DNA from: Candidatus Omnitrophota bacterium
GTDB lineage: Bacteria > Omnitrophota > Gorgyraeia > Duberdicusellales > 4484-171
Assembly (NCBI GenBank): GCA_024231025.1
Contig: JAAEQW010000139.1
Location: forward strand, 7,851-71,850
DNA length: 64,000 bases
Direction of reading: 5' to 3'
Shown here: positions 39,001 through 64,000 of the stretch, in pieces
How the letters are laid out: each line of letters opens with the position of its first letter
How positions within the stretch are numbered: position 1 is the first letter of the stretch
Position numbers and translations under genes: made by a program
Notes under the pieces: generated by a model
Told to the model about the DNA's origin: nothing
What the model saw: only the letters and a program-made list of their open reading frames with translations
Databases searched by the model: none

Positions 39001-42000
39001 TTCTCTGACTTGATTACCGAACGCATAAATAGAATCCAGTAATAAAATATCAGAAGATGTTAGATGCAATTGCGATAGAGCCTCTTTTACCCGATACCAA
39101 TCAATCGCATCAGGATGATTAATATCTGGATTGCCCTTACCTGTCAACGGCCATTCTTCCTTGGGTTTCAAATATCGATTAACTTGAAAATGCTTAAACC
39201 TTTCGAGCTCAGAAGCTTTTCTTGCCCATTTGCTCTTTCCCGAACACTTTTCTCCCGCAACCAAAACAATACAACCTTCCTGGCCATCCATTAAAGTTTC
39301 CCTTAAGCTATTTAATGAATGTAAAACCGCTCTAGAGTAAGCTAATTCCACAGCCTCATTCTCTTGATGGGTTCGGCCATTCAACTCATGTACAAACACC
39401 GCAGTAAGATTATATTTAGGATTATTGAAGGCTGGTTGTTCAATATATAGGGCATTATTGGGTTGGTCATAATAGGCAGCAAAAGTAATTTGTTTACTCG
39501 TAATAACTATTACTTTAGGCGGACCACGTTTTGGATCAACTCTATCTTCTCTTTCTAGAAAGCTTATTGCCTTTTCCCGTGCTGGATTAATTAACTTATT
39601 TTCTTCTGCGATTGGCGCGCGAAATTCAACACTTCCGGTACGGTATTTATCCAACTGCGTTTGGGTTTGAGCCAAAGTATAGCCATTGTATCCGCCGTCT
39701 TTTGAGGAAACAGGATCATTACCATCCTTAGACCTATACTTAATTGCACCGCTTAGCTTGGCATAAAATGCCTCGATAGTTTCTTGCACAACAGCGTCTA
39801 ATTGCCCCTCTCTATTCGCAACGACAATAAAATCTCTTTCTTTGTAGTGCGCTAAATCTTTTGCGTCTCTCCTTGCGTTTACCTCGATCGCCCGAACGAT
39901 ATTTTCCTCGCTAACCGATTCACCTAACTGCGTTAGAGCCCAAATGGCTCTATCTCGAGACTGCGCACGAATGAGAAAAGAAAACCTTGCCTCAGGATGC
40001 TTATTTCGTCCCACCACAATAACCGGAGAAGAAAGAGACATTTCCTTAATTTGATCCTTCATACGGCTTGCCAATTTAGTCGCAACGGCTCTGTTGCTCC
40101 TCCAAGCAACATTAGCTGCACTAGTGATTTCTGGCTGCTCAATATCTTCGGTTACGTCTACTCCGTCAACAAACACTCTTTCTTGCACCATAGTAAAAGT
40201 TGTATTATTAATTAGTCTCAGCATTCCTGATCTGTCTGTTAAGCTAACCCCTTCGTTGAAAGCCTTATGGGTTATCGCCCGATATATCTTACCACGGTCA
40301 AAAACCTGACCGCTAATGCGTGCAGCAAACGCCCAAGCAATAGCAGATTTACCAGTATTACTCTTTCCGCAAACCGAAACAATTATGCCACGACTGCTCT
40401 TAGCACTATGTAAAGGCATATTGAACTGCTCAGGAGTAATCTTCCCCTCTAAAGTGCTAATCAATCCACAAACAACTTGTGCATATCTGTATTTACTTTT
40501 TTTAATCACCCTATCAGCTGTTTTACGCATCAGAGACATTAACTTATCGCTTAAAGAAACAATTTCTTCTGGCTGCCAGTTCTCCACCATATAATCAACG
40601 TATGATTTATAAGGCTCAATAAATTCGACTGCACGCCGCTCAATTCTTGGCCAAGCACGCACGTTAAAAAGTACAGAATCGCCCATCTTCACACCTCGGG
40701 CAATCCGCCGTAGTAATCTAATCGCTAAAGGCGCCTGAAAATAAACCTTAACAACCTCACGCTCTAGTCCGCAAGCTATCTCACCTGTCTCCTTACCAAG
40801 GGCATGCAAAGAATCTAACAATAGTATGTCACTGGTTCCAAGTTGTAGCATTTTTCCTGAACGCCTTGTTGTTCTATTGTTTACCTTGTCATAATTTGCC
40901 ATTTCTACAAAACCATTCTTAGATAACGCCTCTAAGTCTTCCTTCAACCATTCCCAGTTAATCGCACGAGGATGATCAGCATCTGGGTTACCGCTACCAT
41001 CTATAGGGCGATCTTCCTGGCATTTAAAATATCGATCGACAGGAAAATGCACAAATTCATTACGTCCATCAAGACTCCTTGCCCAGGTAGTTTTCCCTGA
41101 ACAGCTGCTTCCGGCAACTAAAACAATGGCGCCCTTATGGTCAACAGCTAAAGAATTCGCCAAGCTCTGCTGTGAATGCATTACTGGGTTATGTGGCGGT
41201 CTGATTTCGTGCAACCGCCCAATGAATGACTCTCTATTTTTCAAAAAGAGCTCTCGGAACGAAACAAGGTCATAAGAACCAAACAACTTTAAAAATGCAG
41301 CTCTTAGCTCTTGGGGAGTATACCCATCCGTAGGATTAGTGTCGATTCCGGCTAATTGTGTAGTATGATCATATAGCCTTTGATCGAAAAACTCTATCAT
41401 TGCCGGGATTATATCTTCTAGCTGCCGACCCTTTGAAATCACTACATCCTTGCGCGCATGTCTTACAATTGTTGTTCGAATATCACCATCAACCACCAAG
41501 ATCTCTCCGTCATCTTCGCTAACACCAAAACTCGCTAATGATCCAGGGTAACGATTCGGGTACATATCCGATCCTAGCACAACAACCGAACCCTGCCTTG
41601 CCTGTCTATCAACAGAATCGTTATATCCTGCCTCAAAGCTACTACTTAAATCAATTATTTTAGCGTCAATAATTCTTGCTAACTCATCAGCGATCGCTAG
41701 CTTTGCATTTTGTGAAGAACCGTAAATAGACACTATGATTCCTGTATCTAAAATGTTTTCTACGGCAGCAACTCCCAATCTAGTCATTTGTTCAATCGGT
41801 AGTTTTCGCCGTAAGGCACTAACCAATCTCGAAGCTAACCCTAAAGACTGCCGATCTCTTTTGGGATCCATTTTAGAAATCGCATCCTCTAGCAAAAGTC
41901 TAGCCGGCTCAGACCATTTAGATAATTCATCCTCACTCCAATTCTTTATTAAATAATCTGCAATATCCTTGCCTGGTTCAATAAACTCTGCGGCGCGATG

Positions 42001-45000
42001 CTCAGCCACAAAGAACTGGCTTAAAACAATCTGCGGCTTCATTGAGCGCTCTTGCGCATTTCTAACTACTTTTCTAAAAAACTTAATTTCCGAAGGAAGA
42101 TCAAGATAAACCTTAACGACTCTGCGCTTTAACTTAGAAAGTAAATCAACTAGCCTCCGATCAAAGGCATGAATTGAATCAATAACCAAAATGTCATTGG
42201 AACCCAATCGCACTTTTTGTCCTGTGCGTCGCTTCTTAAAGCTTGCAAAATCTACCTCGCCAGTCTCAATCAACGCAGTTACATCCGTACAAAACCATTC
42301 CCAATTAAAAGCATCAGGGTGTTCATGGTCTAACAAACCATCCCACCTCTTAGGGTGTTTAAAATAACTATGAAAATATTTATCCCCAATGAAACGCTTT
42401 ATCGTTGGTACCGAAGCACACCATGTTTTTACACACCTACTCTTACCTGCCGCACTAGAACCAACCAACAATACAACCGTTCCTGCTGGTTGCCCTGCAA
42501 TAGCCTTCGTTAACTGACTAATACTAGAAAACCGATGATCATCTCCAAAGGTCTGCCTAGCCAGGCTTGCCTCAAAGCATGCCTTCTTGGCTGTAAGCAG
42601 TTTTGACTGCTTTTTGCTTAATTTACCATCTTTAACCTCAGCTTTAGGGAATTTCCAATGTTCCCTTGAAAAAGCTTCACATGGTGTAATATTAGATTGC
42701 TCAGAATATTTATTGCTTAACTCCTTTATTCTGCTAAACATCTCACTGTAAAGTTCTACCAATAACGCTGAATCCGACGATAAACTTGTTGCGCTCTTGC
42801 GGAAACTTGCAATTCCCTGCAACGCTGCTATCGTAACTGGGTACATTGCTTCAGACAATAGTCTATCCGTACCCTTGCTAAGCTCTTCCTGTGTTCTTTG
42901 CCACTGACCATTCCAAAAATCTATAATCACCGTTTCCTCATAAGGTCGAAACAATATTCGTAACTCTCTTATTCTTTGGGAAATCTCAATCTCTCCTTTT
43001 AATGCTGAATTAGCTAACTGCCCAATAAAAACCATATATCCACTGGCATCGACAAAAGAGGCAATGTTTGGCCGAAGATATTCATGCACAAACAAATCGG
43101 TAACAATACCATCAACCGAACCGCAATTGATCATTTCCGGAAAAGCATAACTACCCTTATCTTTTATATCAATCAGTAAGCGAGCAATTTCACCGATCAA
43201 CTCTTGGGAAGCTGGCACATTAACATATGATTTAATTTGCATAAGCAATAATCGCAGAAGTTGTAAGTACTCCCCATAATCAGGGTGATTACTGTTTGCT
43301 GCCAGGGCACGGTCTGCTAGACGGATCTTTTCACTATCAAAAGTAATCGTTTCAAGCTGATGTGGACCAACCTCTTGATAAGCAAGTATTGGCTCCATCT
43401 CCTGCCAATCTTCAGGGATTTGAGACCAAGAAGATCCGGCAATAAAAGCATCCGCCGGAAATCTACTGCCATCATAAAAAGGCACAAAAGCAAAAGGCAT
43501 TTGAGAATCAAAGGCTTGATGGACTATTTTAGCCGGAATAACAACTCCACCAGTCTTTACCCAATCTTCGATAAACATAACCCCGCTTCCTTTAATCTCC
43601 TGACCAGTCCTGGTATAAGATAAAAGTTTTCGTAATAAAGGTAAGGTTGAATATTCAACCGGATTGTGTGCAAAATAAGCATTAGCTTTTTGTTCTGCGA
43701 TATCGGCAATCCTCCTTGCTTCCTTAATAGCCCTAATAACATTTATTTCTCCGCCTTCAACATCATTGAGGGCATCCTCTATCTTTTTATTCGGTAAATC
43801 TAGTTCTGGATAATTCAAGCATAAATCGTAAACACGATTAAGCCAGGTAAGCACTTCTTCTCTAAGTGTTGCATCAGCTATACCATTTTGCATTCTTCGC
43901 TTAACGGTTTGAATACTACAACCCCCTGTATCTCTAGCAGGAGAGGCAATTAATTGAGTGATTTCAAAGAAACGTCGGTCAATTCTACCATGCTCAACTA
44001 ATAATCTGACCGCTTCTTCTACACTGATACCAACTAAATCAGATAACTCAATGTCTAGCTCCCCTAATTCTTGTAGGCTGACCGATGAAGTAATATCGCC
44101 TGCCATGTCTTCGGTAACCATAATTGCCCGATCTTCTTGAGTAAGAATTTCATTTAATGCCGGAGCAATCGATGTGAATCTACCCAACTTAACATGAGCA
44201 ATATCCTTCTCTTTCGGCAAATACATTCCTAATTTTTCCTCAATCGTTTGCTTCAACTCACTTTCACGTAAAAACTCCAAAGCTTTGATGATTTTACTAT
44301 TTCTGGAAACAACAACTAACTTGTGACTCCTGCGCATTCTCAATAAAGAAATAATATAAAGCGGCAACTCCTGAGGTGTAACATATAATCCCCAGGCGCC
44401 TTTTTTAATAGCCTTATCAAGGGAAAAATCAGGATTTTTCATCTTATCTCTTATAAGATAATCTATGTAGCGAACTATTCTTTCTTGATTAGGAAAGGTG
44501 GATAAAGCTGTCCGACGGAAAGCAACTACTTCTTCTTCGCCTAACTTAAAAACTACCTGCAATCGAGTAAACGCAGCCTTAAGGCGTCTGTCAAGATCTT
44601 CAAATACCCTAACAAGAGGAACCTGCACTCGATCTTTAGCGATGTCTCTACTGTCTTTGGCTTCGGTGTTAACCTCAATCAACTCACCCTTACTATTAAA
44701 TCTCAATGATCTCCCCTCAGGGTCAAGAAAAATACTTTTCTTAAGCAATACTGCTGTCTTTGCCATGCCTAAGCCTTTTACTGAGTAGGCACCCGCAGCA
44801 GTGAGTATTGTTCGATCGTGCCCATTTGGCTGATCGCCAGCAATGAAAATATTCTCTTCCTCAGCTTCAACACCGCGAATTGCAGTTAACTGTTCTTGGA
44901 AATTAATTAATCCTTTTCTTTTAGCAGAACAAGTTATGTCTAAACGCCTAGATCTCGTCATGCGATCTCCTCGATGAACAAGAAAGTCAATAGTTATTCC

Positions 45001-48000
45001 CGGAAAGCCTTGGCTTATCAAACGCTGCCGAATAACATCTCGTAAATATTTAACATAGCTACGATTGTGCTCGCGACTTTCTGGTTTTACTATCCAGCGG
45101 TATGGCTTCTTATGAACTATTTTAAGCTCTAATCTTTTTGTAATCTTCAATAAAGCATTTTTTTCAGAAGCAGAAAATTCACTTCGACCATACAGCTTTC
45201 GCCCGCTGGCAGTAACTCCTTCGTTAGAATTATCCGGATAGATAAACATATTGTCGGCAGCGGCAGAATATGCATCACTTCCCATTATATGCTTCATTGG
45301 TTCAAGAAGAACATGCTTAGCTCCTTCAATCGGCCTAGCTGTATTGAACGATAATAATATTCCATGGTTTGCCAACTCTACCAAAAATCCTAGAATTTCA
45401 TGTGAAGGATAAAGAGTGCCGTCAATATCGCAATGCAAGGCAATTTTAGGTTTTGATAAAGCATCATGGGTATAGTTTATCTTCATAAATTCTTCAGTGA
45501 ACACCTCTATATCTCTAGTAAACAACTCTCCGCAAAAGCGTAAACCGTAAATGTCTATCATTCGTCGAAGCATCGCTTTAAAATCTTCGTGGTCAACATG
45601 TTTAATGCTATGAAGGAAAAATTGAAAAGTGTAAGGTTGATATTTCCGCGCAATGCTCACACAGTCACTACCCAAAAGTTGAATGGTGCTGCCTATATTT
45701 AAAACCGTATCCATCCTAATGCCATCAAAAGAAGTCGAAATATGTCCATTACAAAATTTTACCGTTTTCCGCCAACACGATTGCTCTCTATTGCTAACCT
45801 TCTTGGTAGGATCCAAATTGGCAACATGACGCACGAAAGAAGTAAAGGCATTTCGACCATTATCAGCGACTGTGAGCACCTCCACATCATTGTTAACCGC
45901 TGCCACAACCTTTACCTCCTTGCTCTCGCTCTGGGCATAGTCTGAAACTGCATTTATTATCATTAGCTCTCTTAAAAAAGCTCCCAATTGTTTAGCTGGA
46001 CTCGAATGAAAAAGTTGTCCCTTCTTTTTATTGTAATCTATGCGATGGCCAAGATTATGAGCACCAAAAGGATTATGAGGAGTGAAAATCTGTGCAGCCA
46101 TAAGTCTCAGAAAATCACGAAGTTCTTTGTCTCCTTTCAACTGCGGCGGCTCCGTTCCCATCTTCTCATACCAACCTCTTACTTTATCCAAAGTAAGTGC
46201 GGAATTCCTCCAATCAACTGAAGGCACTATTCCAACTCGACTACGAATTGCACGCCGCCTTCCACCTAACAAAGATGGTATTTTCCACCAATTATCATTA
46301 GATCTAATTAGTTCTTGAGGATCAAGATGCATAGCCGAAGCTACCCTAGTTTTATGATCAGCAGCAAAACACTCTACCTGAGGTCCTTTGTTGTTGTCGC
46401 ATCTTCGAAACACTTTATCACCGATTACACCATATTCACCGAAAAACCTAACTAGGCTAGCCAAATAATACACGATTGAACCAGCCGCCCAACTATCAAT
46501 AAATCTTATCTTAGAATGTGAGAAAATACCCGACTCTTTCAACTCCTCATAAAACTCTACCGCCCTCTTTTGAAAACTAATTTGACTAGTCATTAAAACA
46601 ATAAAATCACGATAGATTGACTCTCTAAATGCATCCTTGTTTTTAGCACGATGATGTTTTCGAATTATCTTCCTTATGTCATGGTATATAAAATCCATCT
46701 TGGCCCTGCTCAAATAATAAATCATTGAATCATTAGGAAAAATATCTAATTGATCCATCAAATACGCGGCAGTAAAATCTCGTCCACAATCTCTTGCCAG
46801 AAATACATTTATTTGGTTAGGATCAACTATCTGCTCAACAACATAAGGCGCCACACCAAACATCCCGATCAATGCCCTAGCTAAATTATCATTAGGATCA
46901 GAAAGCATCTTCACGAAAGAGTTTGCCGTAAGATTTAAAAGAACACTATCTAATTTTCCTAAGGGTTGGGATAAATCAATTTCCTTTGCCAGAGAACCGG
47001 CCTCGCGAACTACCTCACTTATTAACGCTTGTCGATTGCGAAATGAAAAAGACGCTTGCGGATAATAAAATTTGTCTACTCTGGAATCGCTGATTGGACG
47101 AGCATAAAATTCACTTTGAATATCGCTTTTAACGCCATGAAACTCTCGTAATAAACCAGCCTCAAATATTGCTCTCTGAGCTTCAATAGCAGTTAAAGAT
47201 ATTGAATCAATATTTTTATCTATACCTGGGGCAAATTTCAAATGGGCCTTATTTCGTGTTCGACACGGTAAAATATTAAACATCTCGTCATAATTCTGAG
47301 CTAATACCCCTATTGCCCCCATCATCTCGCCATAAGCCACTTTTAATCTCTCCGATTCAGTTGAAGAATCCGCTGCTAAATTACGAAACTCAACGATTGC
47401 TTCAATAGTTTTAATTGTAAACTCGGACATATTAATCTCCGTTAACCTACTAGCTCCTAGATTAATCTCTTTCGTCGTTTTTTGCCACTCATCTCGCCAA
47501 AAATTCACAATCGCCAGTTCTTCTTCGGCTCGGAATGATCCTCTCAACTTAATTAATTCTTGAGAAATCTTAATCTTATCGGTTAACACCAAGTTAACCA
47601 ATTTCTCGATAAAAGCTGTATAGCTAATAACATCTTTAAAGAAAGACACATTGGGTCGTAGATACTCTTTGATAAAACGAGCACTAATAAATCCATCTTT
47701 AATTTTTGCCCCAATTATCATTTGCCCATCATCACAGCTGCCCTCTTCCTTAACATCAATTAAAAAACGAATAATCTCAACCAAAACATCTTGCGCAACC
47801 ATCACATCAACTAAAGAGTTAATCTGCAATAAAACACTATAAATAAGCTCTAAATACTTATAGTAATCAAAGTAATTATCTAGGGCAACAACGTTCTTTG
47901 CGAGATATTTTTCTTGATTTTCGATGGTAATTTCCTCTAACTGATCTTTTTCAACTTCACGATAGGCAATAATTGGTTCCCAATCCTGCCAATCTTCTGG

Positions 48001-51000
48001 CAATCGCACTTCAGGAGCCGCCCGAAGGAAAACATTAGCAGGAAATCTGCTGCCATCATAGAAAGTTGCGAAAACAAATGGTATTGATGAATTGAAAGCT
48101 TGAGCAACCAATTTAGCGAAAGTGAAAACTCTTCCTTTGACTACGGAATCCTCTAAAAACATAACCCCATCTCTTTTTATCTTCTGCCCGGTTTGAGTAT
48201 AACCTAATAACTTCTGCAGCAAAGGTAAAGCCGAATACTTAACGGGATTATAGGCAAAAAATCTATTACCTGCCCTAGCAAGAACCTTGGCAATGTGGTT
48301 GGCTGAATGCAGTAAATCTTTAATATCCGAATCTCGTGCTTTAACGCGCTCTAAAACGCTGTCGATATCCCGAACATCTAACTCTAATTCTTGATACTGC
48401 AAAGCTAAAGTCCTAACTTCGTCGCACCAAACTTCCAATGCCGTTCGAACGTTCTCTGCCGACTCATCGCTCTTAAACATTGCCATAATTCTATCAATTC
48501 CAGATTGATCGTTGCCTTTTGTTGACTGTCCGATCAATCGGAAAATTTTAACAAAACGTTGATCAATCTGACCACGATCAACCAATAGCCTAATCGCTTC
48601 TTCTACACTAGTACCAACCAAATCAGATAACTCAATGCCTAACTCTTCTAATTCTTGCAGGCTGACCGATGAAGTAATATCGCCTGCCATGTCTTCAGTA
48701 ACCATAATTGCCCGATCTCCTTGAGTAAGAATTCCATTCATCGCTATGGCAATTGATCTAAGGCGGTCAATCCTAATATGAGGAATATCGCTCGCTTGGG
48801 GTAATGTCACCCCGAGTTGCTCCTGAATCATTCTACCAGCATCGCTACAACGCAAAGCGCCCAAAGCTTCAATAATCTTACTATTGCGAGAAACAACAAC
48901 TATTTTATGGTTACGATACGACCTTAATGCAGCAAGCATATAGGCTACAACTTTCCCTGGCGCAATATATAATCTTTTTTTGCTATCCTTCACCGCTTGT
49001 GCAAAAGACCTGTCACTATCTTTCACTTGGCTATCAATCAAGTAATCAATATAACGAATTGCCCTCTCCTGATTAGGAAAAGTAGACAGAACTTTTTCAC
49101 GAAAGGCGGTTAACTCTTTTTTAGTTAATCCGAAGACTAGGCGTAATTTAGTGAAGCTGTCGTCAATGCGCTCTGGGGTTACTTTAAAAACTCTTAAAGA
49201 AGTACGCGCAAAATATTTAGTTTCAATACTCTGATTCTCATCGTGAGTTTGGCCATTTAACTCATGAACAAGCACCGCATTAAGATTATACCTGGAATCG
49301 GTGAAAACCGGCTGTTCAATATATAGGGTATTATTGGGTTGGTCATAATAGGCAGCAAAAGTAATTTGTTTACTCGTAATAACTATTACTTTAGGCGGAC
49401 CGCGCGTTGGATCAACTCTGCCTTCTCTTTCTAGAAAGCTTATTGCCTTTTCCCGTGCCGGATTAATTAACATATTTTCTTCTGCGGTTGGTGTGCGAAA
49501 TTCTACACTTCCGGTACGGTATTTATCCAACTGCGTTTGGGTTTGAGCCAAGGTATAGCCATTGTATCCTGCATCTACACCCTTTGGACCATCATCCGCC
49601 TCATCCGCTTTCTCGCACAATTGCTTAAGGAATGAGCTTCTATTTTTCAAGAAAAGATCTCTAAAGGAATCGATACCGTAAGAGTCAATCAATTTTAAAA
49701 AGGCAACTCTTAATTGCTTACCGCTGTATCCATGTGTTGGATCAACGCCAGCGCCACCCAATTGAATTATATGCTGATAAAGACGGCTATCAAAGCATTG
49801 TAAAACAGCATCAGTTATTTTTTCAAATTCATCTTTGTTATTTCTTGCAATTACAACATCTTCAGTCGCACAATTCACAGTTTCTAATTCAATATCGCCA
49901 TCAACCACCAAGATCTCTCCGTCATCTTCGCTAACAACAAAGCTCGCTAATGACCCCGGGTAACGATTCGGGTACATATCCGATCCTAGCACAACAACCG
50001 AACCCTGCCTTGCTTGCTTATCAACAGAATCATTGTATCCTGCCTCAAGGCTACTACTTAAATCAATTATTTTAGCGTCAATAATTCTTGCTAATTCATC
50101 AGCAATCGCTAACTTTGCATTTTGTGAAGAACCGTAAATAGACACTATGATTCCTGTATCTAAAATGTTTTCTATGGCAGCAACTCCCAAGTGACTCATG
50201 CTTTCAATCGATAATCTCTTGTCTAGGGCATACGCTAATCTCGATGCCACTCCCAAAGCTTGCCGTTTCTTTTGCTTGTGCATTCTGTTAATGATATTCT
50301 CCAGCAATGGTCTTGCTTTCTCGTTCAAAGAAAGTAATTCTGACCCACTACTCGTTTCCATCCAGTAATCTGCATCAACTTTAAGGGGCTTAATAAATTC
50401 TGAGCCATGATATTCAATCATTGGATATTCATCAACAGCAATCCAAGCTTCCATATTGCGCTGGTGAGGATTTCTAACTATTCTCCTCAATAGCTCAACC
50501 ACCACAGGAGCCTCAAAATAAATTTTAACAACGTTGCAGTGCAAATCAGAAGCTATTCGATCCATTCGTTTATCAAAAGAATGAAGCGAATCAACAACTA
50601 AAATATTACCTGGATTAAATTGCACTGTGTATCCACTGCAACGTTTCCCAAATTCTGCGGTATCTACTCTTCCATTTTGAATAAGCGAAGCAATATCTTC
50701 TCCAAGCCATCTCCAACTGAATGCATCAGGATGTGCATGATTAAGTAAGCCATCTGGTCTCCTGGCAGAAGGTAAAACATATCTATCTCCTGGAAAACGT
50801 ACTGCATTGAGCAAAGAATGATTTTGCCCTATCCATCTACTTTTACCCGCAGCATTGCAACCGCAAAGTAATACTATGGTACCAGCAGGTTGCCTTATGA
50901 CCACTTCGTTCAACTGCCCAACGGTAACTTTTCTCGGACCAAGATTAACTCTTGATTTAAGGGCTTTCTTGATCGGTGAAACTGCCAAATCATAAGGGAC

Positions 51001-54000
51001 CTTAACATTACGTTTGCGCTTTTTGCCTATTCCCGGTGTTAACTTGTTAAGCGTATATCTGTGGAAATCACTACCGCCAGAAACCATCAGCCCATGTCTC
51101 TGCGCGAAACCTGACCAGTATTCATTGCTTTCTGCATTATGCTCAGAATGAAATGCTTCAATACCATCTAATCCGGCAGGAATCAATTTATCAATAATTG
51201 TCTTCCCCCACATCATCTTACTTAAACGCAATATCTCACGTTCCTCCAAACCCTGTCTGTGCCTTCTCTGAGAAATAAATCCTTTTTCCACCGCCCATTT
51301 CCAAACAAAATGCTTATCCGCCGGATGAGCAAAGAAAGCAAGACCTCCATATTTCTTAATCATTCTTATAACATCTACCGCAGGCCTAAATCCTTGCTTT
51401 GACTCTATCTCCTCTCTAATCCTAACCAACTCTTCTTGGAACTTCTGGTTTTGCCAATCAATACCATAACCTAAGATATGCGTTTCCCCACCATTGAGTT
51501 CTGCATGAAGCTCAACACCAGGGATAATTTCAACACCACATTCTTCGCCAACAACAATTGCCTCTTCAATAGAATCAACACTATTATGGTCAGTAATTGC
51601 GATTGCTTCTAACCCTAAATATAAAGCTGCCCTCACAAGATCTGTTGCGCTAAATCTACCATCGCTTGCAGGAGTATGGAGATGAAGATCAACACATCCT
51701 TTTCTTGCATTTCTATCTTTAGGTATCCTTATTTTCATCTTTCGTAATACATCAAAGGAACCTAATTTTCGATATAAAGCTGCTGCTTCTTGCTTCTGCG
51801 CATACGCTCCTGGAGCAAATTCAACAACAAACAAACGCACAAGATCAAACTTAGGATCATCTAAGGTTTCTCGTTTAATATACATTCTATTTATAAACTG
51901 ATCGTAACAAACAGCAAAAACAACTGTTTCATTCTCAATAATTATTGCTTCTGCCGGTCTGACATCTTGAGAAATTAAATCTACACCCCTTAGAAACGTT
52001 AAGGCTAAATCTTGAGCCAAATCAATCAATCTGCCTTCTCCAGCAGTAGGCTCCCGTAATTTTATTCCATCCTTGAAAAATAGCGCACGCGAAAACTCGT
52101 CTGTATCTTTACACCCAACCTTCTCAATGTGGCCTAAAGAAACTGCGGAGTTAGAGAAGTCTGTTGCTGCCTTTTGCATAAAAGGAATCGGACCAAAGAC
52201 AAGTTGAAACTGCCTGCTATTGTTGGTAGTGCTACATCCCGCATGCAAACTTTCATAAGTAACAACCCCGTTAGTTTGACAGGTCAAATCAACAAAAGCA
52301 TAGGCATCTTTGCGCTCAAAATACTGCCCCTCACCTTGAGATGAAATAACTGAAGAGTGGTAATCCTCCATTGGTTTATTCATTGGAATAACATGCCACT
52401 CAGATGGCAGCTCAATGCCATCGCTATTTAAACTCACCAAAGATAATGCTTTCATTACTTTAACTTTTAATTCTTCAAATTTCTGATATCCAAAAACAAC
52501 TTCCTCTATCGCTCTATCGGCTGTGCTTTGATTATAAACATCGTACTCTTCTCTAGTAAAAGCAAACCGCCCCAACAACTCGTGCGCCCCAACACTTCTG
52601 CCATTAAAAACGTCAGCTGTTTCTTTCTCTCGTGGAAATACAAAAATTTTATCTTGATAGCCACAAACATTAAAAGGAATATTATCATCCTGCAAAACAT
52701 CTACTATTCTATAAAGAATAGCCGCTTTAAGGTTGGGGTTATCTCCACTTATAACAAAGCCGTTAAGACCAGAAAGGCAAAATAAATCAACCTGACTAAA
52801 ATCATTTTTTGTTTCTCGACCGCTATTAGCACCTAGCTTTAACCCAAAAATAATTGCATTATTTCTATTAACTTTATCGACAAGACTTGACAATAATGGC
52901 CTTCTAAGTTTAATTGACTCTACCTTTTTCTTTGGTTTACGACTTCTAGAGCCAATACCAAAAATATGAGATCCGACATGCCTTGTATTTTTGAACCTCA
53001 TTCTATGACGCGTTGCAATAGCAAAACCGATTTTCTTCTTCCACAACCTCTCCCATCCAGTTTGCACTTTAGCATCAAAATCATAACTAGCCCAATTATT
53101 CGCCCCATGTTTCAAAGACCCGATCAACCGGAAAAATCTTTCTGCTCTATCAATCTCATTTTTTTCAACCGCACTAATAGCAGACTGATACAGTACAGGA
53201 AAACTTGTCGCTTCTATTAAACTAGCTTCAAATGCTGCCTTCTCTGTATGGATTTGGCTAAGTTGCTCATCCGTTAAATTATGATTAGTGCCCGGTTCAA
53301 ATTTTAAATAATCGTTTCTAGGACATCGACCTTGCCAGCTACCAAATTGTTGACTATACGTTTCCACCAACTCGCCCATACGACCTCGCATCTTCTGATA
53401 AAGCATGCCTGGATTCTGCGATTGCTCAAAGGAAACTCTCGCTTGTTGACGAAAATCAGCAATCGCCTGTAGCGTCGCGGTTGTAGCCGGCAACATCTTC
53501 TCAGATGTTAATCGCGCCGCGCCTTTTTCAAACTCCTCAATTGATTTATGCCATTCTTTTCTCCAAAAACGAATAATTTGTATCTCCTCATAGGCACGGA
53601 AGGTATTTCTTAATTCAATTAACCGCTGTGGAACTTCTATCTTCCCTTTTATTACTAACTTAGCTAATTTCACAATACATTTCACATACTTAAGTGAGTA
53701 ACGGGGATAAATTATATTCGGGCGAAGATATTCGCTTATAAACCTATCAGTAACCAAACCCTCAGGAATCTCTCTATTAACCATTGTCGTATCATACTCA
53801 AAATGTCCCCTTTGCTTTATGTCGATTAAAAATCGGGTAATTTCGCCGACTAATTGCTCAGAAAGATAAGCGCTGACTCCTCCCTTCACCTGATCAAACA
53901 GATTCCCTAAAAGCTCAATATATTCCCTGTATTCATCATCTTCACTATCAACGGTAATTTGTTTTTCTAAGCGCTTCTCCTCGCTATCGAAAGTTAACTC

Positions 54001-57000
54001 CCTTAAATCATAGCCTTCCCTTTCCGTAACTTCCTGATAGGCAATAATCGGTTCTAAATCCTGCCAATCTTCCGGTGGCCGCACGCGATTGCCTCCTTCA
54101 ATAAAAACATCAGCAGGAAAACGGCTATAGTCATAAAAAACTGCAAAGGCAACCGGTCCCGGCGAATTAAATGCCTGAGCAACTAGTTTGGCCGAAGCAT
54201 AAAGCCCACCGGTCCTTACCCAATCGTCGATAAACATAATTCCGCTTTCTCTAATGTATTGATAAGTCTTAGTATAACTTAGTAATTTTTGTATCAAAGG
54301 CATTGTCGAATATTCAATGACATTGCGGGAACAGTAAGTCTGACCTTGTCTGGTCACAATTTTCGCAATTGGACGAAGCAAGTTAAAAGAATCTTTAAGC
54401 CGTTCTACATTCGAAAAGCTAATCTCTTTATTAATTTCACCCACTCCCCGAATAGTTTCCTCTATATCTTGCTCAGCTAAATTTAATCCCGGATAACTAG
54501 TGGCTAAACTATGTACTCGCTCTAACCAAGCGCTCATCGCCTCTTTGGCTGCTTCTATTTTCTTTGTTCTTTTTTTCCTACTGCCCTTAGCGTGGACAGC
54601 ATCGTTTTTAAATCGATCAACGGTTTCAATACTGCTTCCACTGGAATCTCTACCTACAGTAGCAATCAAACATGTAAGCTCAATTAACCATTCCGGCATT
54701 GTACCCCGCGCGTCTAAAATATTAATTGCCTCTTCTAAGTTAAGACCAACTAGTTCTTGTGCGTTTATTGCTAATTTTTGCACACTTACTGCAGACATAA
54801 TATCTCCTACCATCTCTGCGGTAACCTCCTGCTTTCTTTCCTCCTCAGAAAGAATCCCATTTAAAGCCACAGCCAAAGGCAAAAATCTAGCTAATCGAAC
54901 GTGAGCAATATCTTTCCTTTTGGGCAATTTTACTCCAAGCTGATCCTCAAACATCTTTCCGGCTGCACTATTACGCAATGTCTCAATAATCTCAATTAAA
55001 GCTGTATTTCTTGAACAAATAACTAACTTTTGTTTGTTGTATGTCCTCAATAAAGAAATAAGATAAAGTGGCAATTCCTGATGCGCAATATAACTATTTT
55101 CAAAACCCCCATTTACTTCCTGCTCAAAAGGGCTTTCAGGTTTCTTGCGATGACGAAATAGTAAATAATCTAAATAGCGAATCAACCTTTCCCTGTTGGG
55201 GAAGTTGATCAAAGCCATATCACGAAAGGCAGAAAATTCTTCTTTGCCTACCGTAAAAGCATCTTGCACTCTTATAAAGGCCGCATTAAGAACATTTTCA
55301 CTAGCATCAAAAACCCTAGTTAAAGCCGGATCAGGATTAACATAGCACCCCTTGACCTTGGCCCCAATTTCATACTGTGCCTGGGCAACTTTATTCTCTT
55401 CAAGAGTGCCACCATTTAGTTCACGCACGAATACAGCGGCAAGGCCATGCTCTGGCTTATCAAAGAATGGCCGTTCTACATACAAAATATTACTAGCCTG
55501 ATCGTAACAAACAGCAGAAGCAACTTGCCTAGTCTCAATAATCACAATTTCCGGTAATTCATCAATCAACATCTTCCCTGGCAAAACTTGACGGCTTCTC
55601 TGCATGAACCTTAAAGCAAAGCCCCATTCCCGAGAAATTACTTTATTTTCGCTTTCACTAGCCGGACGAAATTCCACGATAAATCCGCGCAATAAATTTT
55701 GAAAGGCAGAATAACCGTAAAAATCAAATGTGTAATTAATATTAGTTACAAATTCACCCCACTCTCTAGATGTTGCCAAACCGAACTCATCACCTAACAT
55801 GTTTCTTAAACGAGCGTAAACTCCACTGCCTAAATATGCTAAAGCATCATTCCCCGGCCCAAAGACAGCTTCCCATGGCATAAATTGATCGCTCTCCATC
55901 TTACCTTTAGGCTCACCAGAAATAAGCCGCACACCTTCGTAATCTTCAACAGGAACTTCCACTAATTGACCATCTCGATTAAACCTTAAAACTTTACCCG
56001 CAGGATTAATAAAGGTAGTTTTACGGAATAAGGCTATCGTCTTGGCTGGACCAACACCTTCAACAGAATAGCCACCACGAATTGAAATTATTGGGCCATC
56101 ACTTCCTTGGGGATCATCGCCAGCAGTGAAAACATCTTCGTCATTGATACTGCGATGGTGATAACCGCTCAATCTTTGTTTAAAATCATTTAAGCCATCA
56201 CCCTTATCATTGCAAGCAACTTCAAGATATACTGTATCTTCTTGGTTATTACGGATTAAATTAACTCTCAATCTATCAAACCCTTCTTGATTCAATCGCG
56301 CATTCACTTCTGTTACTAATCGCAAAAGAGGCGCTTTATCTGCTTTTCTGCTCTTTTCGGCAACTTTTGCCAAAGCTCTATTGCCAGGACCAAGAATAAA
56401 CATACTAGGGAGGTTGCCTTCTCGAGCAAGATTTTTCAAAAATCGTGTTTCTTCCTCTGAAAATTTATCCTTAGGATAAATCCGCTCACCGGTAGCCAGA
56501 TAACCACTATTAGAACAATCCGTGTAAAAAAACATGCCCGGTGCTTGGCCATCATTAATCCTTTCTGCATCAGCCTTGCGTAATCTCTCAACCATTGCTA
56601 ATTCCTGCACCATCTTACATTCGTTAAAACTACGACCAGTATTAAAAGACACGCTTATGCCCTGATTAATTAACTGTTTTAAAAAGTTCTCTATTATCAG
56701 TGATGAATCGCAAGTTCCATCAATATCAAGCATCACCCCTCGTTTAGGATATTGTAGATCTTGATACAATTGTGTAATATTATTTGCCTCGCTAAAGAAT
56801 CTAGCAAACATTGGTCTCAATAGCGTAATGCCATAAACTTTGGTCATACGCAAGAAATTGGCTCTTAATTTATTCCAATCATACCTACTACCCAAACTAC
56901 CTTCAAAAATCGCCTTTTTCTCCATAAGCTCATCAACTCTATTTGGACTTAAACTATGATCACTACCAACTTCAAACTTTAAATAAAGTTTAGAAGGAGC

Positions 57001-60000
57001 CTCAGCCGGTAAAATATCAGCAGATTCAGTGTAACGGTCCACTAATCCTTTTATCTGGGCCATCATTCCAGAATAACTCTCCTTTAATCGACTCGGCTCA
57101 ATCGAGAATGTTTTTGCTTGCTGGCGAAAATGCGCAATCGCCTGCAACGTTGCGGTTGTAGCCGGCAGCATCTCCTCAGATGTTAATCGCGCCGCGCCTT
57201 TCTCGAACTCTTCGATTGATTTATGCCACTCGCTTCTCCAAAAACGAATAATTTGTATTTCCTCATAGGCACGGAAGGTATTTCTTAATTCGACTAGCCT
57301 TTCGGAAATTTCAATCTCCCCTTCCAGCAATAAATTAGCTAATTTCGCAATAAGCCTTACATAATCAGAAAGATGCTGGCGAGTAACTATGTTCGGACGA
57401 AGATAATCATTTATAAGAAGGCTGGTAATTGTTCCTTCTTTTGCTTCGCCATTGCCTATCATTTCAGCATAATTAAAACTCCCCTCGTTTTTAATATCAG
57501 TTAAAAAGCGTACGATTTCACCAATCAATTCCTGTGAAGCCGGTATATTAATAAGATTAGCAATCTGCTTTGATACAATCTGTATTAATTCCAAGTATTC
57601 ACCATATGCCTGATCACTGCTATCAATACTAGACATGGCTCTCAAACGCTTCTCCTCACTATCGAAAGTAACTGCCGCTAAACTATGCTCGGAAACCGGC
57701 TGATAAGCCAGCACCGGTTCTAAATCCTGCCAATCTTCAGGAATTTGAGCCCAAGAACAACCTTCAACAAAAGCATCAGCTGGAAAACGGCTGCCGTCAT
57801 AAAAAAGCGCAAAAACTAACGGTAAAGATGCACCAAAGGCTTGAGCAACAACTTTTGCCGGAACAAAAACGCTTCCGGTTCTTACCCAATCTTCCACAAA
57901 CATAATTCCGTTATCTCGTATATACTGTCCAGTTTGCGTATAAGCTAACAACTTCTGCAACAAAAACAATGTTGAATATTCAATTGGATTCCGAGCAAAA
58001 TAACTATTACCTTCTTTATTTATAAGCGAACTAAAACGTTTAATTTTCTTAAAAATTTTGCTAAACTCTAGGCTACCTTCATTAAGCTGATCGGAAAGTT
58101 GTTGAATTTGACAAACTGACAAATTCAATTCTGGATAATTAGCTGCTAAATTGCCTGCTCTTTTTAACCATTTTGATAAGGCATTCAATGTATCTTGCTG
58201 ATCCACATCGCTCCGTGTCATTCTATCAATTGCCTCAATACTTCCTTGATCCACACTTCTGTGTGACGGTTCAGTTAATTCTGTAACTTCAATAAAGCGT
58301 TGATCAATCTGACCACAATCAACTAACCGACCAACAACCTCAGCAAAACTAAGACCGATTAAATCTTCTGCGCATAGCCCTAATTCTGCTAATTTTTGCA
58401 TGCTTACTGCAGATACAATATCCCTTGCCACCTGCGCGGTAACTTTACTTTCTCTCTCCTCTTGTGTAAGAATTCCATTGATAGCCCAAGAAATCGGCAT
58501 AAATCTACCAACCTTAATATGGGCAATATCTTTTTCTTTAGGCAAAGTTACATTTAATTTCGTTTCGACTAATTGCCCAAGTCTACTGTCACGCAAAACA
58601 TTCAACGATTGTATTATTTTGCTATTTCTAGCAATAACAGCCACCTTATGATTTCTGTATGCTCTTAACAACGGCACTAGATAAACCGGAAATTCTTGAG
58701 GAGTGATACACAATGTTTTCAAGCTATCCTTTACGATTCGAGCAAAATTCCGATAAGGAAAATTTATCTTATCCTGGATCAAATAATCCAAATAACGCAC
58801 AAGTCTCTCTTGATTCGGAAAAGTAGATGTTACTGACTGACGAAATTCCGCCAATTCTTCTTCGTTCAATCCGAAAACTACTTTTGATCGACTAAAGCAA
58901 CTTTCGATTCGTGCCAAACTAACTTCAAACACTCTACCAACCGCGGCTTCACAATCTTTAACCTTCACTAGCTGATCTTCTTCGTTAAACCTTAATGCAC
59001 TCCCTTTTCGATCGATAAAGGTAGTCATCCTCAACAATGCAGCAGTTTTTACTGGGCCACTTCCTTCAACAGAATAGGAGCCGCGAGCTGAAAGTAACGG
59101 TCTATCATTTTCGTCCGGTGCATCAGCAGCGATAAAAATATCCTCGTCCTGGATACCGCATTGATGATCATCACCTAATATTTTTTTGAAATTCCCTAAA
59201 CCTTGAGATTTGTCATAGCAAGCTATTTCAATATAGGTTATTCCTTTAACTGACGAACCAAGTGAATTTACTTTAAGATGTCGAAATCCTGCCTCTTTTA
59301 ACTCGCGCATAAAAAACTCTTTCAAGGCTGATAAATATAACTTTTCACTCTTTTGCGAATATTTTGACAAATACCTGTATTTTAATAAATACTTATACCT
59401 AGTCGCATATGACACTCCCAAATCGAATCGCTCACTGAGTTCTTCAATAAAATGACTTTCCTCTTCAGTCAATAAAGGTCTAGGATAAAGGCGATCCCCC
59501 TTCCACCATTGGTTAGCGCCAATTACACAAGCATCATTAGCGCCTCGACCATAAAAAAACAAGCTCGCTGGTATCCCCGTAGAAATAGCTTGACTCTCTT
59601 TCTCCATAAGTTCCTTGATTATTGCTAGCTCTTCCTTTGTGCGGCAATCATCAATGCTGCGTGCCGTATTAAAAGCCACGGGAATAGCCCTTTTTTGCAA
59701 CTCAAACAAAATAGTCTTTAGTTTGCCACTGGGCACTGATGTTCCATCAAGATCAAGCATCACGCCCCGTTTAGGATGCTTCAACTTTTCAGATAGTTCA
59801 TCTTCAACCAGTTCATCCTTTTTGTTAAATCTGACAGCTTTGCCTTCAGGAGTAACAAATATACTCCGCCGCAATAACATCGCGGTTTTTATCGAACCAA
59901 TCCCTTTAACGGAATAGGAGCCACGAGCTGAAAGTAACGCTCGATCATTCCTTCGCGAATCATTCCCTGCAATAAAAATGTCCCTTTCATAAATCCCCAA

Positions 60001-63000
60001 TCTATTCTTTATATCATCTAACACTTTACTCGCATCATAACAAGCAATCTCAAGATAATCTGAGCCATTGTATACATCACGAAAAACATTTACTTTTAAA
60101 TCACTAAATCCTACTTTTTCTAATTCGCCACTAATAGTTTTTCTTAATTCAAATAAATCAGCTTCATCAATCGCCTCGCGTGGCCGCAACATATACTTAT
60201 ATTTCGTATGATGCCTCTTCTTAAAATTAAACCTCTCTACAAGATCTTGAATAAAATCATCTTGTATTTTTGAAAATTTTGGTTTGGAATAAAGCTTCCC
60301 ACGACAAGCATCCGAAGCCTTATTCCCTCCACGACAATAAAATAATACGGCAGGATTCTCCCCCTGAGAAACTCTCTCTTTTTCCCTATCTCTTAAATGG
60401 CTCATCATTGAACATCTTGGATCATTCTTAAACTCAGAAAGCCCACGCACCGTAGAAAAAGCCAAAGGAACGCCTCTCTCATGCAAAGCTAATACGAGGT
60501 CTCTCACCGTTGAAGATGATGTGCTTACTCCGTCAACACCAAGCAGAACCGCCTGTTTAGGCTGATTTAATTTTTCATCTATCTCTTCTATCTGCTCCCA
60601 TTCTCTACCAATTTGACAAAACAATCCCTCTTGCAAGCAATTTGAGCCGTAAATATCAAATGTAAGAGCAAGCTTGCCTGCAAACTCACTCAAATCCTTA
60701 AACGTACTCAAGCCAAACTCATCAATTAGCAAGCTCTTTAGACGCGTGTATGTTGCAACATCTAATAATTTTAAAACATCATCTTCTGCACCAAAGATAA
60801 TTTCCCATGGAATAACTTGGCTGTTTTCTGCATTACCATTACTTTTTTGAGAAATACGTTGAATAGCTTCATCCTTTGTGGTAGCAACCTCTATTAATTG
60901 ATCATCTCGATTAAATCTTAAAACTTTACCCGCAGGATCAATAAAAGTAGTTTTACGTAATAAAATTGCCGTCTTGGCTGGACCAACGTCTTCAACAGAA
61001 TAGCCACCACGAATTGAAATTATTGGACCATCACTTCCTTGGGGATCATCGCCAGCAGTAAAAACATCTTCGTCATTAATGCTGCGGCCGTGATGAGCGC
61101 TCAATCTTTGCTTAAAATCAACTAAACCTCTACCTTTGTCAAAACAAAGTATATCGAGAAGCTTGCTTGTTGAATCAACCATAGCATCCAGGGTCACTTT
61201 TAACCTACCGCACCCTGCCTGGATCAATCTGCCCTTAACTCGATCCATTAACTCATTTAGGCGCTCTCTGTCTTCTTCTTTACCCGATGCTGGAACTCCA
61301 GCCATCCATCTGCAATCAGTAATAAAGATCTGCGCAAGGCCAAGCTCCCTGGCAAATCCTTTTAAAAACAACGCTTCATCATCGGTGAATACATCTGAAT
61401 CATAAAGACGTCTGTGTGCAGCATCATGTGCCCGATTAGAACAACTAGTGTAGAAATATACCCTTGGTGTTTCTCCTTCAGCAAGCCTAATTTTTTCCTC
61501 ATTGAGTAATCTTTTAGTCATCGCAATATTAAACCCGCCTTGCCCCCTACAATCATCAAAACTGCGACCAGTATTGAAAGATACCGGTATATTATGGGTA
61601 ATTATTTGCCGTAAGAGAGATTCTATTTCCGGTGACGGTATCGACGTTGCATCGAGATCAAGCATCACGCCCCGTTTAGGATATTGTAAATTTTTATGCA
61701 ATTGAGTAATATTGTTTATTTCAGTAAGAAACTGAGTAAATATCTTCCGTAAAAGCGTAATGCCATAAACCTTAGCCATTCGTAAGAAGTTCCTTCGAAA
61801 CTTGCCCCAATCATGCCCATAGATTATTTCCATGATTTGGTTCTCGTGATGCGTTGCGCAATTTAACTCATGCACGAATACTGCGGGAAGATTATATTCA
61901 GGATTATTGAAGATTTGTTGTTCGATGTATAGGGCATTATCGGATTGGTCATAATAGGCAGCAAAAGTAATTTGTTTACTTGTAATGATTGTTACATTAG
62001 GCGGGCCGCGCGTTGGGTTAACTCTACCTTCTCTTTCCAAGAAGCTTATTGCTTCTTCTCGTGCTGGATTAATTAACTTATTTTCTTCTGCAGTTGGTGT
62101 GCGAAATTCTACACCTTCGATGCGGTATCTACCCAACTGCTCTTGGGTTTGAGCCAAGGCATAGCCATTGTAGCCTGCATCAACTTGGGTAGAGCGTGTT
62201 GGCAATGTATCTGAAGCTCTTACTATCTTGGCCTCAAATGTTGCTTTCTCAAAGGCAAGCTGGGCGAGTTGATGGTCAGTTAATTTGGAACTGGTGCCAA
62301 CAGCAAATTTTAAATGACGTTTTTCTGGACAATATCCCGGTAAAATATGAAACGTATCGCGAAATCCGCTGACTAAATCATCTATCTTAGCAATCATTTG
62401 CTGATATGGTTCAGTTAAATCAGCTGACTCTCCAGGTAAAACGCTTGCTTGCTGGCGAAAATGCGCAATCGCCTGCAATGTTGCGGTTGTAATCGGCAAC
62501 ATCTCCTCAGATGTCAATCGCGCCGCGCCTTTTTTGAACTCTCCGATTGATTTATGCCACTCGCTTCTCCAAAAACGAATAATTTGTATTTCTTCGTAAA
62601 CACGAAACAAATCTCTTAGCTCAATCAATCTCTTAGGAATACTAACCTCATTTTCAAGAGTTAGATTAATAATCTTAAAAACAAGTTCCATGTATCTATT
62701 AAAATATTTAGGGGCGGTTAAATTAGGGCGAAGATACTCATCAATGAAACGATTGGTGACAAATCCTCTTGGTGTCCCATGACTACCAATTATCATTCCA
62801 TGATATTTAAAACTTTCTTTCTTTTTTCGATCAATTGCGAAACGAAGGACCTCTCCAACAAATTGTGGTGAAACATATGTCATATTAATAAATCTTCTCA
62901 ACTCCTCAACTTTAGTCTCCATGAGATCTAAATATTCCAAGTAATCAGAATGGGTATTATCTGCTGTCATTTTTCCTTCTAGGCGCTTTTCTTCTGTGTC

Positions 63001-63984: not shown

Positions 63985-63990
63985 TTTTCG

Positions 63991-63996
63991 CTCCTT
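63991..63996 (-). promoter_or_regulatory. Shine-Dalgarno-like AAGGAG, 6 nt upstream of the candidate ATG start at 63984.
   Basis: Reverse complement of ctcctt at 63991-63996. The spacing to the ATG is canonical. However, the upstream in-frame codons still align with the repeat unit found at the starts of modules 2 and 3, so the ORF may continue 5' beyond the window. Confidence 0.45.
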
Positions 63997-64000
63997 AGGG

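Follow-up and report, generated by a model that had tools for sequence, protein, structure and literature searches.

Which reaction, if any, is catalyzed by a TrpH-like PHP domain that is buried in a protein over 21,000 residues long? This question is raised by a 64,000-nucleotide stretch of DNA from a Candidatus Omnitrophota bacterium (assembly GCA_024231025.1, contig JAAEQW010000139.1; hereafter the window), in which positions 1..63999 of the minus strand form a single uninterrupted reading frame of 21,333 codons (minus frame 2, 0 stops), part of a giant gene. The frame is open at both ends and runs off both of them, so the gene must be longer than the window; the other five frames contain 779-2498 stops each. 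We number amino acids (aa) such that residue i corresponds to window position 63999-3(i-1) and downward, and all features lie on the minus strand unless stated otherwise. An original prediction, made from the letters alone, had placed the PHP domain inside a megaprotein, which the absence of any stop in the frame bears out. PHP domains are a well-known family, their identification is routine, and giant Omnitrophota proteins have already been described. What is new is a TrpH-type PHP domain that lacks the insertion domain of its clade and carries a lineage-specific insert after strand β5, inside a giant protein. As read from its sequence, this domain may be a catalytically active phosphoesterase, one module of a tethered block that handles nucleotides, a reading that we hold tentatively, at slightly less than an even chance.

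A TrpH-type PHP domain with a complete predicted metal site

The PHP domain occupies window positions 50947..51702 (aa 4100-4351), as delimited by sequence profiles, an AlphaFold2 model and Foldseek. It matches Pfam PHP (PF02811) with an expect value (E) of 2.3e-11 and 44.8 bits, against a cut-off of 26.4; of the 164 positions in the profile, the N-terminal 67 are aligned, a partial coverage that TrpH-type proteins usually show. In NCBIfam, it scores best with NF041577 (3',5'-nucleoside bisphosphate phosphatase, E 2e-28) and NF047791 (RNase RNM, E 1.6e-26), and a third family of the same clade, NF041661 (phosphoribosyl 1,2-cyclic phosphate diphosphodiesterase), also matches (E 1e-16). Among proteins of known structure, sequence matches are found to 3e0f (the best, E 1.5e-16), 9etk, 2yb1 and 7ug9, with E values ranging from 1.5e-16 to 1.7e-10. 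A search of 5.8 billion proteins returns free-standing TrpH proteins of about 270-300 aa with 30-37% identity, and identity to 115 TrpH members amounts to 35-46% over aligned columns.

The AlphaFold2 model of aa 4095-4352, computed from an alignment of 115 TrpH homologs, has a mean pLDDT (predicted local distance difference test) of 91.9 and a pTM (predicted template modeling score) of 0.90, and consists of seven strands alternating with helices. Foldseek ranks the PHP domain of Escherichia coli RNase AM (7ug9) first among PDB structures (E 2.6e-17, TM-score 0.82 normalized on the target), followed by 9etk, 3e0f, 2yb1 and 3o0f. These top five are all TrpH-type (E 2.6e-17 to 5e-15), the PHP domains of DNA polymerase III follow at about 1e-9, and all 36 matches with E<=0.001 are PHP structures. 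NCBIfam, PDB, AlphaFold2 and Foldseek thus agree on the TrpH-like PHP domain that had been proposed, with the fold of RNase AM and Cv1693; its closest neighbors in both sequence and structure belong to the TrpH/YciV clade (COG0613: RNase AM, Cv1693, BAD_1165). We therefore regard it as virtually certain that aa 4100-4351 form a TrpH-clade PHP domain, a distorted (β/α)7 barrel. An assignment to anti-phage PHP-AAA proteins (TrlF/Ppl) was considered and rejected, as the NCBIfam and PADLOC matches to such proteins are weak and confined to the N-terminal PHP part.

Seven motifs had been listed for the domain, and each is present exactly once and in the proposed order, on the minus strand: CVDLHLHT (aa 4102), AITDH (4134), PGVELH (4160), LGYG (4176), AHPA (4224), FHSEH (4283) and GGSDFH (4308). 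They extend over window positions 51061-51696, with the start of CVDLHLHT encoded at 51694-51696 and the last histidine at 51061-51063. The proposed span of 51060-51700 is thus accurate for the motifs, but the domain itself reaches further, to about 50947, because the C-terminal TrpH helix VKVPYDLAVSPIKKAL, which contains the nearly invariant Pro4335, belongs to it.

Nine metal-ligand columns are invariant in the 115 free-standing TrpH homologs, and all nine are occupied in the window domain: H4106 (codon 51682-51684), H4108 (51676-51678), D4113 (51661-51663), H4138 (51586-51588), E4163 (51511-51513), H4174 (51478-51480), H4225 (51325-51327), D4311 (51067-51069) and H4313 (51061-51063). In E. 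coli RNase AM, Mn-α is held by His13, Glu72 and Asp255, Mn-β by Glu72, His83 and His198, and Mn-γ by Asp20, His45 and His257 (PMC9410882). When aligned by HMMER to 2yb1 and 3e0f, the window residues fall, motif by motif, exactly on these ligand positions. Together with the 115-sequence alignment, this shows that the motifs do superimpose on PHP metal ligands, and in the AlphaFold2 model the ligands lie in, or just after, successive β strands. The idea that all seven motifs bind metal needs one correction: six of them hold the full set of nine ligands, whereas FHSEH is a family motif beside the invariant E4281. The histidines of FHSEH are only majority-conserved and do not appear in the published ligand list of RNase AM (crystal structure, PMC9410882). 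Eight invariant non-ligand residues are kept as well (D4104, S4112, D4137, G4276, G4279, E4281, G4308 and G4309). The predicted trinuclear site for divalent metals is complete, and the domain is probably catalytically competent as a predicted phosphoesterase.

A missing insertion domain and an added segment

In ordinary TrpH proteins, strands β4 and β5 are separated by an insertion domain. At this site (51382..51414, aa ~4196-4206), the window domain carries the short sequence EEIESKQGFRP in place of about 65-75 residues, leaving a gap of about 75 alignment columns (columns ~131-204). From the β4 His to the β5 His, the window domain counts 51 residues, whereas the median for 243 free-standing relatives is 115. 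The deletion is shared by just two of these 243, the metagenomic TrpH-like proteins P0196 (215 aa) and P0124 (242 aa), whose ligands are intact. This count, made by pattern matching, leaves out some 15 sequences in which the β5 His was misplaced, recognizable because their two spacings sum to the normal value of about 132. Two nearly invariant Arg columns are occupied by Ile4198 and Lys4201 in the window, and the GRPHxA motif is absent.

What is lost with this sub-domain is clear from characterized members of the clade. In E. coli RNase AM, the insertion domain comprises residues 107-176 and, together with the barrel, encloses the 5'-phosphate of the first nucleotide, which is bound by Arg107, Arg110 and Arg141, while Phe161 stacks on the base (PMC9410882); in Cv1693, the base-stacking residue is Phe154 (PMC11528712). 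The window domain shares with the RNase AM proteins of E. coli (YciV/TrpH, 7UG9) and Vibrio cholerae (9ETK) the PHP barrel, the nine-residue trinuclear site and the C-terminal helix; it differs in lacking the insertion domain with its Arg triad and stacking Phe, in having about 33 extra residues after β5, and in being part of a polypeptide that exceeds 21,000 residues, whereas RNase AM (about 290 aa) stands alone. The same holds for Cv1693 of Chromobacterium violaceum (2YB1, a 3',5'-nucleotide bisphosphate phosphatase) and BAD_1165 (3E0F): both barrel halves and every ligand motif align, but the alignment skips chain residues ~100 to ~187, which means that the AMP-binding insertion is absent from the window domain.

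The added segment follows the β5 ligand, at 51214..51318 (aa 4228-4262), and is a private insert, rich in basic and aromatic residues (DKHFVWKWAVEKGFISQRRHRQGLEEREILRLSKM), seen in both the alignment and the AlphaFold2 model. It lengthens the distance from the β5 His to the GxxGxE motif to 51 residues, compared with a median of 17, corresponding to the extra ~33 residues. It is predicted to be helical (model residues 135-144 and 157-181, pLDDT 72-85) and should lie on the active-site face, since it emerges at the C-terminal end of a ligand-bearing barrel strand. P0196 and P0124 do not have this insert (spacing 22, against 51 in the window) and are single-domain proteins.

These differences bear directly on the proposed function. 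The domain had been equated with the pAp phosphatase/RNase AM, that is, with a TrpH/YciV equivalent acting as a pAp 3'-phosphatase and/or as an RNase AM-type 5'-to-3' exonuclease on 5'-phosphorylated short RNAs. Its best NCBIfam families, best structural neighbors and identical metal site are those of these enzymes, and the basic and aromatic insert after β5 could in principle rebuild a 5'-phosphate pocket. However, the equivalog scores fall far below their cut-offs (99.4 bits against 400 for NF041577 and 93.2 against 375 for NF047791) because the insertion domain is deleted, a deletion found in so few relatives, and the Arg columns have turned into Ile and Lys. We consider this identity quite unlikely, and the corresponding part of the original prediction is not supported. 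As the domain is devoid of the sub-domain with which its characterized relatives grip their nucleotides, its substrate cannot be read from them.

An exhaustive HMMER search of 1.84 billion representatives identifies two closer relatives, both of them incomplete proteins that each take up an entire contig of a Candidatus Omnitrophota metagenome-assembled genome. The first, P0121 (MDD5439168.1, 4,856 aa), is the best match overall (E 1.3e-45) and aligns across the whole insertion-less domain. In aa 2721-3170 it contains two PHP copies in tandem, both insertion-less, and most or almost all of their nine ligand positions have been substituted; in the second copy, for example, the sequence reads DLHCYT, SIG, TDRD, CLIGYG, ARPG and GGSGFAD. 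The PHP copies are followed by a GH3 domain, and the fragment also encodes RpiB, DUF362, radical SAM, ARMT1-like phosphatase and B12-binding domains. The second, P0149 (MCX5708765.1, 3,528 aa), is the best match for the kinase part discussed below. Its PHP domain (aa 2918-3310) is ligand-intact, like that of the window, but has a different insertion of about 190 residues after β4; an apparent HAD motif (DIDDT) follows this PHP domain, and PGI, ROK, PRK/Udk, Cmk-like and CofD domains are present in the same fragment. The lengthened region after β5 is common to the window domain, P0149 and P0121.

P0121 also bears on whether the window domain could be a non-catalytic structural or binding module of a giant scaffold. 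Two such dead copies in its closest relative, the loss of the catalytic Asp from another enzyme-like domain of the same giant protein (Udk-like domain 4, see below) and the disappearance of the substrate-recognition sub-domain would all fit this idea. On the other hand, the nine ligands and the eight invariant non-ligand residues are retained, and the barrel is predicted with high confidence by AlphaFold2. Since P0121 demonstrates that ligand decay happens in this lineage, yet none has occurred in the window, a dead domain becomes less likely, and we judge it very unlikely. P0121 and the window domain, both insertion-less, one with decayed and the other with nine intact ligands, offer a natural comparison. 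More broadly, the TrpH clade, whose characterized members all depend on the insertion domain for substrate capture, can lose this domain yet keep a perfect metal site, and the insertion-less PHP domain would mark an uncharacterized specificity class of TrpH-like enzymes.

The fused kinase and a candidate nucleotide-handling block

The PHP domain had been described as lying immediately upstream of a uridine-kinase-like domain, and the profile searches agree. Udk-like P-loop kinase domain 1 (50302..50934, aa 4356-4566) begins about 5-20 residues past the last PHP helix, with its P-loop within 30 residues of aa ~4351, and matches the udk family TIGR00235 (E 5.9e-9) and Pfam PRK (E 0.006). Residues 4353-4570 align to positions 7-185 of the 207 in the TIGR00235 profile, scoring 36 bits against an equivalog cut-off of 220. 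The P-loop GCNAAGKS (aa 4380-4387), the catalytic-Asp motif GDRY and the lid RRIVRN..QRN are kept. A single-sequence search of the PDB with this domain gives no match. A profile built from the four Udk-like copies of the window and an Omnitrophota homolog finds Thermus thermophilus uridine kinase (3asy, E 9e-19) and human UCK2 (3e-16), and phosphoribulokinases only near 1e-9.

Further along the frame, Udk-like domain 2 (41923..42534, aa 7156-7359) is 44% identical to domain 1 and matches Pfam PRK (E 4e-22) and uridine kinase (E 2e-20), and Udk-like domain 3 (40564..41163, aa 7613-7812) matches udk (E 6e-22) and the T. thermophilus uridine kinase 3w8r (E 8e-8). These are followed by a CMP-kinase-like domain with the P-loop GKSNTGKS (39835..40386, aa 7872-8055; Cytidylate_kin E 4e-18, cmk TIGR00017 E 9e-20, with 71 bits against the cmk cut-off of 135). 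Udk-like domain 4 (38800..39318, aa 8228-8400; udk E 1.6e-12) is probably inactive, judging from its sequence, because it is shortened and has Asn at the position of the catalytic Asp (VNRY). A HAD-IA phosphatase domain (37030..37620, aa 8794-8990) is closest to YihX-type glucose-1-phosphatase (8pno, E 4e-9).

How might these modules work together? In the TrpH clade, a metal-activated water attacks the phosphate ester at the 3'-oxygen of a 5-phosphoribosyl compound (established for RNase AM in PMC9410882 and PMC11528712), and the substrates include pAp, pNpN... and 5-phosphoribosyl 1,2-cyclic phosphate (from the NCBIfam family names and, for RNase AM, PMC9410882 and PMC11528712). By analogy, the PHP barrel of the window, loaded with three divalent metal ions, would hydrolyze phosphate esters. 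With its 5'-phosphate clamp lost, the domain would no longer require a 5'-phosphate and might cleave phosphate mono- or diesters 3' of ribonucleotides or short oligonucleotides, with nucleoside 3'-phosphates, 2',3'-cyclic phosphates and 5'-OH oligonucleotides as plausible substrates. The products, nucleosides or 5'-OH species, could then be re-phosphorylated by the neighboring ATP-dependent kinases, such that the PHP domain and the kinases together would make up a tethered nucleotide-recycling block, and the PHP domain would be one enzyme module of a membrane-anchored giant multi-enzyme protein of the Omnitrophota kind. This would be a more specific version of the coupled phosphate removal and addition that had been suggested originally, an idea compatible with the evidence and with a neighborhood of four Udk-like domains, a Cmk-like domain and a HAD domain. 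We consider a nucleotide-type substrate for the PHP domain possible, at somewhat under an even chance, whereas a functional coupling of this domain to the adjacent kinase is doubtful.

A Kyte-Doolittle scan finds no strong hydrophobic segment in aa 1-9059, and transmembrane-like clusters appear from aa 9060 onward (9060-9694, 11467-11534, 13895-14123, 16142-16297, 18627-18968 and 19890-19908); such a scan cannot settle the membrane topology or how often the chain crosses the membrane from the kinase block to the GGDEF domain described below. As no strong hydrophobic segment precedes aa 9060, the PHP, kinase and HAD domains should share one compartment. We infer that this block faces the cytoplasm, solely because kinases need ATP.

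Several points weigh against the reading of an active, nucleotide-handling block. Activity and substrate of the PHP domain are predictions from sequence, and the nucleotide assignment would derive entirely from clade membership and neighbors, because the part with which TrpH enzymes recognize nucleotides is missing. In Udk-like domain 1, AHPDAF stands instead of DHPDAF, Phe replaces Tyr, and the His column is gapped; in uridine kinases, we take the Asp of DHPDAF to bind the ribose and the Tyr and His to read the base, based on UCK2 structures. With DHPDAF replaced and the base-reading His gone, the acceptor of this kinase is uncertain and may be something other than a pyrimidine nucleoside. 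Nor do the relatives keep the PHP-to-Udk order: in P0121 the PHP copies adjoin GH3, and in P0149 the two domains are about 1,500 residues apart. PHP, Udk-like and Cmk-like domains do recur together in P0149, but a direct PHP-Udk fusion, as in the window, is present in neither protein, and domains of giant proteins may be juxtaposed without any functional coupling. Finally, scans of genomes and metagenomes yielded no ortholog with which to gauge constraint on the ligand codons: a peptide-pattern scan of genome contigs found only one unrelated Clostridia TrpH (24% identity), the corresponding scan of metagenome contigs found nothing, and a metagenome scan with the Udk profile returned two ordinary loci (53% GC, ~497-aa open reading frame) rather than giant genes. 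Three things chiefly limit our confidence: Udk-like domain 1 has an atypical acceptor site, the PHP-Udk junction is not conserved, and sugar-phosphate enzymes are abundant in related proteins.

The last of these leaves room for a different chemistry, in which the PHP domain would be a phosphatase or phosphodiesterase for a non-nucleotide compound, such as a sugar phosphate or ribose cyclic phosphate, and the Udk-like domains would be PRK-family kinases of sugars or other small molecules. The clade does include phosphoribosyl 1,2-cyclic phosphate diphosphodiesterase (the NF041661 match), sugar-phosphate enzymes (RpiB, GH3, PGI and ROK) abound in the related Omnitrophota fragments, the HAD domain is closest to YihX, Udk-like domain 1 has no nucleoside-reading residues, and surveys report sugar-metabolism clusters in giant proteins (10.64898/2026.06.07.730766, 10.1101/2023.11.21.568195). 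Yet the kinase profile fits uridine kinase better than phosphoribulokinase (E 9e-19 against ~1e-9), a CMP-kinase-like domain is part of the same block, and all characterized TrpH-clade enzymes act on 5-phosphoribosyl compounds. On balance, we find a non-nucleotide substrate unlikely.

The direct fusion of a predicted 3'-phosphoesterase to a P-loop kinase also brings to mind end-healing enzymes. T4 Pnkp and similar enzymes combine a 3'-phosphate-removing domain with a P-loop 5'-kinase in one polypeptide. A PNKP-like pair in the window would remove 3'-phosphates or 2',3'-cyclic phosphates and phosphorylate the 5'-OH of broken RNA or DNA; the PHP domains of PolX and PolC, which are also among the sequence matches, act on polynucleotide ends as nucleases or phosphoesterases, and the loss of the mononucleotide clamp would open the active site to polymers. 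However, the match of the kinase to uridine kinase is full-length, that to the PNK-type AAA_33 family is confined to the P-loop (E 0.034), and domain scans of the frame detect no ligase or nucleic-acid-binding domain nearby. The resemblance to Pnkp is one of function only, as the phosphoesterase is a PHP and not a HAD or calcineurin-type domain, and the kinase belongs to the Udk family and not to the PNK family. An end-healing role thus appears highly improbable.

Within the preferred reading of a nucleotide-handling block, one can speculate further that the PHP domain and the fused Udk-family kinase might form a '3'-to-5' phosphate relocation' unit in a nucleotide-salvage assembly line. Here, 3'-nucleotides left by RNase T2/RNase I-type digestion of prey RNA would lose their 3'-phosphates or 2',3'-cyclic phosphates to the PHP domain, and the tethered Udk-like, then Cmk-like kinases would rebuild nucleoside 5'-monophosphates and diphosphates, all on one membrane-tethered polypeptide of a predatory or episymbiotic Omnitrophota cell. 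We put this forward as a long shot. In any case, few modules in the giant protein have a chemistry that is predictable and can be assayed separately. The PHP domain is among them and thereby provides a practical means of finding out if enzyme domains in Omnitrophota giant proteins are active and if neighbors cooperate.

The giant reading frame and its other modules

Giant membrane-anchored multi-enzyme proteins with repeats have been documented in Omnitrophota ('Archaeovorin'; 10.1101/2023.11.21.568195, 10.64898/2026.06.07.730766). The window frame resembles them in its repeats, scattered enzyme domains, transmembrane-like clusters and GGDEF domain (10.1101/2023.11.21.568195; 10.64898/2026.06.07.730766), and it combines a length of more than 10,000 aa with diverged internal repeats. 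PHP and uridine-kinase domains are not mentioned in the main texts of these two studies, and their supplements contain no PHP or Udk entries (10.1101/2023.11.21.568195, 10.64898/2026.06.07.730766). Recognizable in the frame are the PHP domain, four Udk-like domains, one CMP-kinase-like domain, one HAD-IA phosphatase and one GGDEF domain, and most of the 21,333-residue stretch is without a detectable homolog.

The N-terminal part of the visible frame (aa 1-8750, window ~37750-63999) consists of diverged internal repeats that are 25-76% identical in a self-comparison and for which no external homologs were found. A scaffold unit of about 550 aa occurs at aa 2-594, 1847-2369, 3053-3598, 5095-5618 and 6622-7148, with 0 matches in a word-indexed search of the 5.8 billion proteins. 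A smaller unit of about 115-160 aa is present five times in the same region. A linker or scaffold module, termed 'Y' (51724..52068, aa 3978-4092), lies directly N-terminal to the PHP domain, and self-BLAST identifies diverged copies at aa 582-744, 2775-2876, 4787-4945 and 8069-8246, with 28-76% identity between copies; module Y has no Pfam or NCBIfam match. The Udk-like domains take part in the repetition as well: in two places (aa 4356-4796 and 7156-7598), a Udk-like domain and a 146-aa module behind it form a cassette, and the two 146-aa modules are 64% identical.

An orphan module, 'Z', is found in two copies that are 40% identical, the first shortly upstream of the PHP domain (52183..53226, aa 3592-3939) and the second just before the HAD domain (37738-38781, aa 8407-8754). 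They share the long invariant motifs WERLWKKKIGFAI, GRSVGAHE and QYFExKDAxAFVDL. Module Z has no Pfam match, and an AlphaFold2 model from the two-row alignment reached a pLDDT of only 39.9 and was not used.

Window positions 38800-42534 (aa 7156-8400) form a dense kinase block made up of Udk-like domains 2 and 3, the CMP-kinase-like domain and Udk-like domain 4. A word-indexed homology search with a 1,251-aa query covering this block returned nothing, which probably reflects a limit of the word index, as Udk and Cmk homologs certainly exist. Far downstream, the GGDEF domain (13678-14190, aa 16604-16774; Pfam E 2e-35) retains its GGDEF motif intact (aa 16685), with an RxxD site located five residues before it, and is preceded by two strong transmembrane-like helices (aa 16163 and 16279).

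The coding strand of the giant frame is purine-rich (A 20,233, G 15,239, T 18,442, C 10,086), with an overall GC content of 39.6%. Elsewhere in the window, only two open reading frames of at least 150 aa are present, at 22901-23605 (234 aa) and 30971-31426 (151 aa) on the plus strand. Both run antisense to the giant frame and have most probably arisen by chance. The window contains no marker gene.

The closest free-standing TrpH protein (P0001) is encoded at positions 6001-6825 of a metagenomic contig (L004; ENA ERZ27247228 k141_1068070), in an ordinary housekeeping neighborhood. There, uppS, cdsA, dxr, rseP, ispG, queD, queE, the TrpH gene, a HAD hydrolase, smpB, a phosphoribosyltransferase and pyrB are found together, with the HAD hydrolase located immediately downstream of the TrpH gene.

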